This document shows positions 22,197 to 56,988 of a stretch of DNA of 64,000 bases, in pieces. Made by a program: the position numbers and the translations under genes. This DNA comes from Patescibacteria group bacterium (GTDB taxonomy: Bacteria > Patescibacteriota > Minisyncoccia > Phycocordibacterales > Phycocordibacteraceae). Below the pieces are notes generated by a model. That model made no database searches. It was not told where the DNA came from and saw only the letters and a program-made list of their open reading frames with translations. The stretch lies in NCBI GenBank assembly GCA_038064495.1, contig JBBTSZ010000002.1, positions 82,035 through 146,034 on the forward strand. The letters are read 5' to 3'. Within the stretch, counting starts at the first letter, position 1. Every line of letters begins with the position of its first letter.

Positions 22197-22209
22197 ATTG
22201 TTCTCTATC

Positions 22210-22618
22210 GGTGGAGGTGCGGGGGATTGAACCCCGGTCCGAATCTCTCTTTGAGAACGAGTCTACGACGCATAGTTAGCATTGAAGTTTCAGCAGAAGC
22301 ATAAGAACGCTAACAAAAACGCTTCTACCTAGTCCTTAGTTTTCAGTCGTTCGTGTAGGAGCACGAGAACCTATTCCGTAGAATATTCCGCCCAGCTCAT
22401 CCGCTACGAAAACCGGAGTGAGTGAACGTCGCTTTGGCGAAAGCGCGGGGCTTTTACGCGAAAGCGAACGCAAAGTCCTTGCTACCGAAGTATGGGGACT
22501 TTACGCTTGCAACAGTTGTGTTGGCAAGTTTAGGTGTATGCCAGATTTAGGTGGTGAGCATACTTCCACCGCGTCGCACGTTTCTCAAAGAACGAGACCG
22601 TCAAAGCCAGTCACCCCC
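22210..22618 (-). ncRNA. ssrA: tmRNA (SsrA)
   Basis: 5-prime GGGGGTGACTGGCTTTGACGG resembles canonical GGGGCUGAUUCUGGAUUCGACGG; 3-prime T-arm GGGGTTCAATCCCCC + acceptor CACCTCC-A-CC; 7-bp acceptor with G3:U70 alanine determinant; candidate tag ORF GSKDFAFAFA-stop (about 22454..22486). Confidence 0.85.
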
Positions 22619-25560: not shown

Positions 25561-25637
25561 GCATCCATAGCTCAGTTGGTTAGAGCACGGAGCTTATACC
25601 TCCGCGGTCCCTGGTTCGAGTCCAGGTGGATGCACCA
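25561..25637 (+). tRNA. tRNA-Ile (anticodon UAU)
   Basis: cloverleaf by hand: acceptor GCATCCA/TGGATGC, D-arm TAGCTCAGTTGGTTAGAGC, anticodon stem CGGAG/CTCCG loop CTTATAC, T-arm CCTGG-TTCGAGT-CCAGG, CCA encoded. Confidence 0.8.
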
Positions 25638-53677: not shown

Positions 53678-53753
53678 GCGGCCATAGCTCAACTGGTTAG
53701 AGCACCCGCCTGTCACGCGGGAGGTTGCCGGTTCAAGTCCGGTTGGCCGCGCC
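53678..53753 (+). tRNA. tRNA-Asp (anticodon GUC)
   Basis: acceptor GCGGCCA/TGGCCGC, loop CTGTCAC, G73. Confidence 0.85.
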
Positions 53754-55550: not shown

Positions 55551-55647
55551 TTTCAGAATCTACGAAACGACTTATTAAAACTCGACGCAAGTCTCAGTAG
55601 AATTGAGAAATTACAGCCTTCACGGTAGGATACGATAGTTCTGCCCA

Positions 55648-55922
55648 GCCGTTGTAGCTCAGGGGTAGAGCAACTCCATGGTGGGTCGTCTGATTCCTGC
55701 CCACCGTTTTCGTGAGAAAACGGTGAATCCCGAATAACGGTTAATAGCTCCACAAGCCAAGACCGTGGCACGAGATTTCTCGGGCCCGAACGACTGACAA
55801 GGGCCCCTCTTCCAGCATATAAGCTGGAAGAGGGGAAGATACAGTCTAGTCCTTCTCCAAGTGGTTTGGAGAGAAGGTGTAAACGAAGGAGTAGGTCGGC
55901 AGTTCAATTCTGCCCAACGGCT
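55648..55922 (+). tRNA. tRNA-Thr (anticodon GGU) interrupted by a 203-nt group I-like intron between positions 36 and 37
   Basis: exon 1 55648-55682: GCCGTTG-TA-GCTC-AGGGGTA-GAGC-A-ACTCC-ATGGT; exon 2 55886-55922: AA-GGAGT-AGGTC-GGCAG-TTCAATT-CTGCC-CAACGGC-T; exons join into a perfect cloverleaf; intron 55683-55885 ends with G and contains 10-13 bp perfect helices. Confidence 0.7.
55683..55885 (+). other. putative group I self-splicing intron in tRNA-Thr anticodon loop
   Basis: preceded by U, ends with G; helices CACCGTTTTC/GAAAACGGTG, CCCCTCTTCCAGC/GCTGGAAGAGGGG, CCTTCTCCAA/TTGGAGAGAAGG. Confidence 0.55.
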
Positions 55923-55988
55923 CACACATACACATCTATCGGACGAAGGCTTGATAGAGAGCCCTCTTGTAGGGTAGATTAGCAACAC

Positions 55989-56064
55989 GCCACCTTAGCT
56001 CAGTTGGTAGAGCATTTCACTCGTAACGAAAAGGTCCGCAGTTCGATCCTGCGAGGTGGCTCCA
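55989..56064 (+). tRNA. tRNA-Thr (anticodon CGU)
   Basis: acceptor GCCACCT/AGGTGGC, loop CTCGTAA, T-arm CGCAG-TTCGATC-CTGCG, CCA encoded. Confidence 0.8.
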
Positions 56065-56100: not shown

Positions 56101-56988
56101 ATGACTGATACGCCTCCCTCACGGCTCGAAGAAATAGAGGCGCTCATGGCGAGTCCAGATTTCTGGGCTGATAAAGACACTGCGCAAGCGGTGGTACGTG
56201 AGTATCAATCCCTCAAGGATGGGGGAGAGGTAGGAGATGATCCGCATGACGCAGGCGGTTCCACTCTTGCGGTCTTAGCAGGTGCAGGCGGAGACGATGC
56301 TGAAGATTTTGCTCGCATGCTCCGTCGTATGTATGAAGGATATGCGGGAAAGAAAGGATGGGGCGTTCGTGAACTCCACGCAAACGAAAACGACCATGGA
56401 GGATTTAGAAATGTACTACTTGAAATTACCGGGAGGGGTGTCTACGGAACACTCAAGCGAGAGTCCGGTGTGCACCGCCTAGTACGCATCTCACCCTTTA
56501 ATGCAAACGCGAAGCGCCAGACTTCCTTTGCGCTCGTGGAAGTGCTCCCCATGCTCGTGCCTGGAGAGAAAATAGTTCTCAAAGACGACGAGCTTGATAT
56601 GCAGTTTGCAAAATCGGGTGGGGCTGGTGGACAAAACGTAAATAAGCGAGAAACAGCAGTGCGAATTGTGCATACGCCCACCGGCACCTCCGTCCATGTT
56701 TCAAGCGAGCGGTCTCAGCAAGCGAACCGTGAAAAGGCGCTAGAACTCCTCCAAGCCAAGCTCTACACCAAACAAAAAGAGCGCGAGGAATTAGAGGCAA
56801 AGGGACGCTCTATTGCGGCTAATTCTTCAAATGAATGGGGCAGCCAAATGCGTTCCTATGTACTGCATCCCTACAAAATGGTGAAAGATCACGAGACAGG
56901 ACATGAGTCACATGATCCGGAATCAGTGCTCGAAGGAGATCTGGATGGCTTTATAGAAGCAGCTCGAACGTTCGTCCCGGAAAACTAA
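56101..56988 (+). CDS. prfB: peptide chain release factor 2 (short, no programmed frameshift)
   Basis: SPF and GGQ motifs (RISPFNANAKRQTSF; SGGAGGQNVNK); starts right after tRNA, about 295 aa. Confidence 0.8.
   Translation: MTDTPPSRLEEIEALMASPDFWADKDTAQAVVREYQSLKDGGEVGDDPHDAGGSTLAVLAGAGGDDAEDFARMLRRMYEGYAGKKGWGVRELHANENDHGGFRNVLLEITGRGVYGTLKRESGVHRLVRISPFNANAKRQTSFALVEVLPMLVPGEKIVLKDDELDMQFAKSGGAGGQNVNKRETAVRIVHTPTGTSVHVSSERSQQANREKALELLQAKLYTKQKEREELEAKGRSIAANSSNEWGSQMRSYVLHPYKMVKDHETGHESHDPESVLEGDLDGFIEAARTFVPEN

Follow-up and report, generated by a model that had tools for sequence, protein, structure and literature searches.

A group I-type intron of a described class in the tRNA-Thr(GGU) gene of a Patescibacteria group bacterium

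The interrupted gene and its neighbourhood

We found an interrupted tRNA-Thr(GGU) gene on the forward strand of a 64,000-nucleotide stretch of contig JBBTSZ010000002.1 (the window), assembled from a Patescibacteria group bacterium. The 5' exon (35 nt, 55648-55682) comprises the acceptor strand, the D arm, the 5' strand of the anticodon stem, the loop nucleotides AU and the anticodon GGU, corresponding to tRNA positions 1-36 (GCCGTTG TA GCTC AGGGGTA GAGC A ACTCC AT GGT). The 3' exon (37 nt, 55886-55922) starts with A37 and A38, followed by the 3' strand of the anticodon stem, the variable loop, the T arm, the acceptor strand and a discriminator U (AA GGAGT AGGTC GGCAG TTCAATT CTGCC CAACGGC T). 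The CCA end is not encoded in the gene. The two exons are separated by a 203-nt group I-type intron (55683-55885, forward strand) that belongs to the 'divergent group I' tRNA-Thr(GGU) class, contains no ORF of its own and is the sole match in the window (200 bits) to R1, the covariance model that we built for the family. A preliminary description, made from the letters of this DNA, had recognised two tRNA halves of 35 and 37 nt lying 203 nt apart, and these coordinates were verified in the sequence.

The joined 72-mer folds into a perfect cloverleaf (-29.3 kcal/mol), as that description had proposed, and matches at 72 of 72 positions the tRNA-Thr(GGU) gene that is uninterrupted in a related metagenome-assembled genome (MAG) locus, L030, where the gene has the same position upstream of tRNA-Thr(CGU) and prfB. 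Since the spliced product equals the L030 gene, the intron spans exactly 55683-55885, between tRNA positions 36 and 37, and a one-base slide of either junction alters the joined product. Both the sequence and the L030 comparison thus agree with the earlier placement of the insertion, which follows a U and ends in G. ARAGORN with the intron option (-i) reports tRNA-Thr(ggt) i(36,203) at 55648-55923; over the whole window, the gene is missed by ARAGORN without this option and by Rfam with default settings. A separate intact tRNA-Thr(GGU) had been named as an observation that would speak against an intron. ARAGORN found none in the 64-kb window, where the interrupted gene is the only tRNA-Thr(GGU).

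The intron-bearing gene is followed by an uninterrupted tRNA-Thr(CGU) gene (55989-56064, forward strand), which belongs to the conserved synteny Thr(GGU)-Thr(CGU)-prfB by which we found the orthologues. Downstream of it lie a short gene for release factor RF2, then ftsE and ftsX. The RF2 product has a 100% identical counterpart in an NCBI 'Patescibacteria group bacterium' MAG, and the 80 related loci that we fetched via the RF2 gene all come from Paceibacteria, Parcubacteria or Kaiserbacteria MAGs, in agreement with the CPR-like host genome suggested earlier. The RF2 homologue itself (56101-56988) has only 295 aa, and as its PCRF-domain match begins at profile position 94 of 194, the N-terminal part usually present is missing. 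It needs no frameshift, and its close homologues are all about 290 aa long.

Several other RNA genes of the window were recorded. A tRNA-Asp gene (53678-53753) is uninterrupted. A tRNA-Ile gene with the anticodon UAU (25561-25637) represents an uncommon bacterial means of reading AUA, a codon that is read in most bacteria by a lysidine-modified CAU tRNA. On the reverse strand, Rfam detects a 410-nt tmRNA (22209-22618; 105 bits, full model) that has large insertions relative to the model in the Rfam alignment and is unreported by ARAGORN -m.

Homologous introns in related genomes and metagenomes

The gene order tRNA-Thr(GGU), tRNA-Thr(CGU), prfB is common to the related loci. A homologous intron of 178-235 nt occupies the same site in 12 of the 80 relatives, and the tRNA-Thr(GGU) gene is uninterrupted in 46. 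To collect further members we used a core pattern (GACTGACAARGG and AAGATACAGTC, separated by a gap of 14-44), which matched at least 120 metagenome contigs. The same pattern gave 0 matches in viral contigs, and thus there is no sign of phage carriage. Stretches outside P7 (GAATCCYGAATAACGGT ... AAGACCGTGG) were noted as a possible anchor pattern.

Every complete copy among the matches listed lies within a tRNA-Thr body, with (A/U)UGGU directly before the intron, a G at the intron end and AA directly after it. Judged from these sequences, this uniform context argues that the family is common and, among the matches listed in the sample collected, exclusive to position 36/37 of tRNA-Thr(GGU). 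Different host genes had been considered for metagenome matches that fail a strict exon motif; this was rejected because the motif was too narrow. The collection comprises about 130 copies; among the matches listed, the introns measure 169-254 nt (median 194 nt). No other copy collected here (among the matches listed) shares more than 76% identity with that of the window. The shortest members among these matches, L095:4723-4907 and L102:477-661, have introns of 169 nt and keep all core elements. The window intron had been described as a minimal one; with members down to 169 nt among the matches listed, 203 nt is not minimal. The 169-nt members are shorter than the Azoarcus intron of about 205 nt, which is commonly named as the smallest tRNA intron that splices itself.

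Against a set of 68 intronless or other loci, among them L061 with its tRNA-Asp intron, the best E value obtained with R1 was 0.4, indicating that the model does not bridge to canonical introns. The L061 gene (L061:195-480) is a tRNA-Asp(GUC) with a 211-nt canonical group I intron. ARAGORN places this intron at position 37; the sequence, with exon CUGU before the intron and an intron-terminal G followed by exon CAC, fits the 35/36 site of Nakagawa et al. 2026. A second group I-like element was seen at a contig end on the reverse strand of L162 (L162:2-330), downstream of an intron-bearing Thr(GGU) and a Thr(CGU) gene. It is Azoarcus-intron-like (GCCGAGCCAAGC...GAAGGTGTAGAGACTAGACGG...CATAGTCC) and scores 18 bits with the Thr-intron model, and its host gene is cut off.

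No homing endonuclease was found in the window intron: the overlapping ORFs are all antisense and run across the tRNA exons, and 203 nt leaves no room for such a gene. On a single-gene RF2 tree, presence and absence of the intron form a very patchy pattern, with 13 carriers and 12 Fitch changes. Identity between introns correlates with identity between the RF2 proteins (Mantel r = 0.55, p = 0.0006). As intron divergence follows host divergence, vertical descent with repeated loss is favoured over frequent transfer. Descent thus appears to have been mostly vertical with many independent losses, a tentative statement because it is drawn from one protein and a neighbour-joining tree.

Fold of the intron and covariation across the family

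The intron is predicted to be far more stable (-84.1 kcal/mol) than its shuffled versions (-58.4 +/- 4.8 kcal/mol; z = -5.3), none of 200 shuffles being equally stable. Three perfect helices of 10-13 bp had been described in it. Two are indeed perfect (55702-55725 with 10 bp and 55804-55835 with 13 bp); the third (55851-55877) has 10 bp with a 2-nt bulge. Some pairings of the single-sequence minimum-free-energy fold (intron bases 1-5 with 101-105, and 16-19 with 85-88) were dropped for the covariation-supported P1, P3 and P6.

The covariance model R1 was built from the 13 synteny-found sequences and used to align 99 full-length copies; P3 was added as a pseudoknot, and the structure was counted on 96 distinct sequences. 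From P1 to P9 (with P9.0), 91.2% of the cells are paired, compared with 73.4% in column shuffles (0/500 reached this value), and 50 of the 62 pairs show changes on both sides, all over the 96 distinct sequences. Controls in which the structure was slid are 27-46% paired. The sequences of this large alignment were gathered with a pattern in which P7 is fixed, and they were fitted to the model structure, which favours that structure. From the 13 sequences found by synteny, aligned with MAFFT and unfitted, RNAalifold independently recovers P1, P2 and P4-P9.

The structure begins with P1 (55680-55701), in which the exon nucleotides GGU (55680-55682) pair with a guide GCC (55699-55701) and form a U.G wobble at the 5' splice site. 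Across the family these three pairs are GC in 95, GC in 94 (plus one CG) and UG in 95 sequences, so that the splice-site U.G is kept in 95 of 95. The nucleotide at -1 is U in 99 of 99 aligned members. P1 is extended by the intron start GGGUC (55683-55687), which pairs with GAUUCC (55692-55697), and this extension covaries. After displacement of the intron 5' end, the adjoining part of the guide, AUUCCU (55693-55698), could pair with the 3' exon AGGAGU (55887-55892) as P10. This putative helix, read from the sequences by eye, would comprise 6 bp in the window, and most relatives offer only 2-3 bp for it. P2 (55702-55725) is a 10-bp hairpin with a GUGA tetraloop and compensatory changes at all 10 pairs; its loop is of the GNRA type in 94 of 99 members.

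The core is formed by P3 to P8. The 5' strand of P3, CCC (55729-55731), pairs with GGG (55801-55803), as seen by covariation and also by eye, and this 3' strand forms the core pseudoknot with P7. P3 is unusually short, with 3 bp that are 98.9% paired; its variable pair is CG in 85, UA in 6 and UG in 2 sequences. P4 (55737-55742 with 55761-55766) is 100% paired, has a closing pair that is UG in 80 and CG in 14, and encloses A-rich J4/5 and J5/4 and a short P5 hairpin (55747-55757). The P6 hairpin (55767-55786), seen by RNAalifold, and P5 show compensatory changes at every pair. P8 (55804-55835), the perfect 13-bp hairpin, is nested in P7 and shows covariation at all 8 modelled pairs. The hairpins P5, P6, P8 and P9 all vary in length among relatives with compensatory changes. 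By eye there is no P7.1 or P7.2, since P8 directly follows the 3' strand of P3.

The 5' strand of P7 (55790-55796) reads A, a bulged C and GACUG, and its 3' strand CAGUCU is preceded by J8/7, AAGAUA (together 55836-55847). A55790 pairs with U55847, C55791 is bulged, and the following G55792-C55846 pair, beside which an A-U pair stands, is the presumed guanosine-binding pair and is invariant. We take the bulged C beside a G-C pair and the J8/7 sequence to resemble the canonical core, for example that of Tetrahymena. P7 is 100% paired. Neither P7 nor J8/7 varies among the 13 sequences found by synteny; in the metagenome set they were fixed by the search pattern. Because of this invariance, the pairing of P7 comes without covariation support. 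A search for P1, P7 and the guanosine-binding site had been recommended earlier: P1 with its U.G is found in 95 of 95 sequences and draws support from the comparison, and P7 with the bulge beside the presumed guanosine-binding G-C pair is present, invariant in the 13 sequences found by synteny.

At its 3' end, the intron is built from P9.0 (G55849-C55884 and U55850-A55883; 55849-55884), which surrounds the P9 hairpin (55851-55877). P9.0 shows strong covariation (GC 58, AU 34 and UA 3 at one position; CG 55, UA 36 and UG 4 at the other), and the window pair U55850-A55883 is one of the compensated variants. The terminal guanosine at 55885 (omega-G), which marks the 3' splice site, is a G in 99 of 99 aligned members. 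The homologue comparison, the covariation and the conserved splice-site nucleotides together support the group I reading of the insertion with which the preliminary description had started.

This architecture also bears on a reading in which the insertion would be an intron spliced by proteins, of the archaeal or eukaryal bulge-helix-bulge type, or a structured element that is no intron at all, such as a small mobile repeat. The long near-perfect hairpins and the ambiguous ARAGORN placement of the intron in relatives would be compatible with it. The site is 36/37 and not the canonical 37/38 of bulge-helix-bulge introns, and the junctions sit in P1 and beside P9.0, as read from the model structure. 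A repeat is opposed by the single copy in the window and by the restriction to tRNA-Thr(GGU) across all loci collected (among the matches listed). We regard this reading as the least probable of those considered here.

The anticodon stem formed between the two exons is recovered by RNAalifold as well, and it covaries (CG 6, GC 5 and AU 1 at one pair; UA 8 and GC 5 at another). Thus, the interrupted genes remain under selection as tRNAs. This covariation across intron-bearing genes disagrees with the idea that the locus is a pseudogene, split by an inserted element and never spliced, with another gene supplying tRNA-Thr(GGU). The exons match a functional orthologue at every position, the interrupted gene stands at the orthologous, syntenic place, the roughly 130 collected copies have intact exons and precise junction nucleotides, and the window holds no second tRNA-Thr(GGU). 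Furthermore, a genome seldom contains both an intron-bearing and an intronless copy for one anticodon (PMC13011429). A dead gene would be compatible with the absence of an Rfam match, and the part of the genome inspected amounts to 64 kb; on balance, we judge it very improbable. A group I intron in a living tRNA-Thr(GGU) gene is the reading that we follow below.

Relation to known introns, detection and splicing

According to the summary in 10.1101/2025.07.03.662931, Castelle et al. 2018 (Nat Rev Microbiol) described 15 'divergent group I' introns in CPR, in tRNA-Thr(GGT) only. The same summary states that these have a group I-like size and structure, are undetected by Rfam, terminate in G and are spliced immediately behind the anticodon. 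Three further Thr introns from complete Paceibacteria genomes, detected with tFind's gpI_bact_tRNA.cm, are listed by Nakagawa et al. 2026; in the tree of that paper, the Thr introns group with the Asn and Asp introns, and their long branch falls within the IA clade, not IC (PMC13011429, Table 1 and tree). The text of Williams 2020 does not mention the class. The window intron shares the host gene tRNA-Thr(GGU), the 36/37 site, the G end, the group I-like size and fold, the lack of an Rfam (RF00028) match and the host group (Patescibacteria, Paceibacteria) with these introns, and the tendency of ARAGORN to mislabel as tRNA-Arg(GCG) 34/35 recurs among its relatives. Compared by published description, there is no difference of substance. 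The window intron is therefore an ordinary member of an already described class and is not new.

Other known introns are more distant. The group I intron that Reinhold-Hurek and Shub are said to have described in 1992 from the tRNA-Ile(CAU) of Azoarcus sp. BH72 is reportedly of subgroup IC3 and about 205 nt long. Like the window intron, it is small and ORF-less; its exon-guide P1 has 3 bp and ends in U.G, P2 carries a GNRA loop, P5abc is absent, and P9.0 and P9 precede the terminal G. Azoarcus-type introns are recognised by RF00028, whereas the window intron is not and has a P3 of only 3 bp. Patescibacterial introns of tRNA-Asn(GUU) and of tRNA-Asp(GUC) have in common with it the phylum, the insertion in the anticodon loop and, mostly, the lack of an endonuclease gene; they differ in their host tRNAs, in their 35/36 site, in being detected by RF00028 and in their demonstrated self-splicing in vitro, and the Thr model misses the one in L061. 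The cyanobacterial and proteobacterial tRNA-Arg(CCU) group I introns share position 36/37 (PMC13011429) but interrupt another tRNA, are IC-type, in some cases carry LAGLIDADG endonucleases and are detected by standard models.

The check with the group I covariance model RF00028 that had been recommended earlier gave no match, either at the gathering threshold on the whole window or at E<=10 on 55600-55970 (371 nt) with Rfam 15; at E<=10, Rfam returned only chance miRNA and sRNA matches to the intron hairpins. At the gathering threshold, 13 related loci gave tRNAs only, and RF00028 was absent in the 12 homologues. Under the same conditions, the control tRNA-Asp intron of the relative L061 was detected by RF00028 (31.6 bits, E = 1.9e-6). 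Since RF00028 is known to overlook this intron class as a whole (PMC13011429), the miss is uninformative; with the control intron detected and the blind spot described in the literature, it does not refute a group I intron.

In 11 of the 12 relatives, ARAGORN reports the interrupted gene as tRNA-Arg(gcg) i(35); the Arg(GCG) 34/35 mislabel has been noted before (Nakagawa et al. 2026, PMC13011429). Across L018, L021, L026, L040, L054, L056, L058, L059, L062, L065, L073 and the metagenome loci L081-L200, the choice of a shifted splice site leads ARAGORN -i to label most family members as Arg(gcg), His, Pro, Leu or Gln. As host genes, Arg, His, Pro, Leu and Gln were rejected as boundary artefacts, the complete copies having a tRNA-Thr context.

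We consider it highly probable that the insertion is a group I intron of the published class at 36/37 of tRNA-Thr(GGU), and that standard two-step splicing yields the mature tRNA. The complete anatomy of a small group I intron makes the guanosine-initiated two-step pathway the best explanation, and from this anatomy we infer the chemistry and the autonomy from proteins. The gene would be transcribed as a precursor of about 275 nt, in which the intron would fold into P1-P2, P4-P6 and P3-P7-P8-P9. With the guide GCC paired to the anticodon GGU, U36 would form the U.G wobble at the 5' splice site, and a free guanosine bound at the P7 G-C pair would attack after U36. The guide would then hold the 3' exon through P10, and P9.0 would put the terminal G55885 into the same pocket. 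The freed 3' OH of U36 would attack after G55885, joining U36 to A37. The product would be the mature 72-nt tRNA, which must then receive its CCA.

Alternatively, the intron may derive from group I while having lost autonomous splicing, so that a host protein (a chaperone or maturase-like factor) or special conditions would be needed for the same junctions. Small bacterial tRNA group I introns such as that of Azoarcus self-splice well, which counts against such a loss, as do the strict conservation of the catalytic-core junctions and splice-site nucleotides, the retention in 94 of 99 members of a GNRA loop suited to tertiary docking, and the lack of any linked cofactor gene in the neighbourhood of the intron. 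On the other side stand a P3 reduced to 3 bp, the missing stabilising extensions of the P5abc type and a core diverged enough to escape RF00028. Moreover, splicing has been validated only for the Asn and Asp 35/36 introns, which self-splice in vitro, and not for the Thr class (PMC13011429); we found no report of Thr-class self-splicing in the literature searched. A loss of autonomy seems improbable to us, though less so than a pseudogene.

The finding of a group I intron in this gene carries little weight as a discovery, because its class, host gene, site and taxonomic home are already published. Its practical value lies in the annotation of tRNA-Thr(GGU) in CPR genomes. As default tRNA finders and Rfam miss the gene, tRNA-Thr(GGU) seems absent from such genomes, and automated annotation miscounts tRNA-Thr and tRNA-Arg. 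The missed gene and the wrong labels together distort tRNA counts and the CPR completeness estimates that draw on them. The data set of about 130 copies of 169-254 nt from one gene provides a working covariance model together with a secondary structure that is backed by covariation, and these comparative data could guide the first splicing assay of a very small ribozyme class. A bolder proposal, which we think unlikely, is that the Thr clade is either a structurally distinct, ultra-compact group I branch (169-254 nt, with a P3 of 3 bp, P2 and P9 as its only peripheral domains, and missed by the standard model) or a group with lost autonomy that may act as a protein- or condition-dependent checkpoint on the supply of tRNA-Thr(GGU) in genome-reduced CPR bacteria. 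If the ultra-compact branch is real, the 169-nt members L095 and L102 would be the shortest natural self-splicing group I introns.
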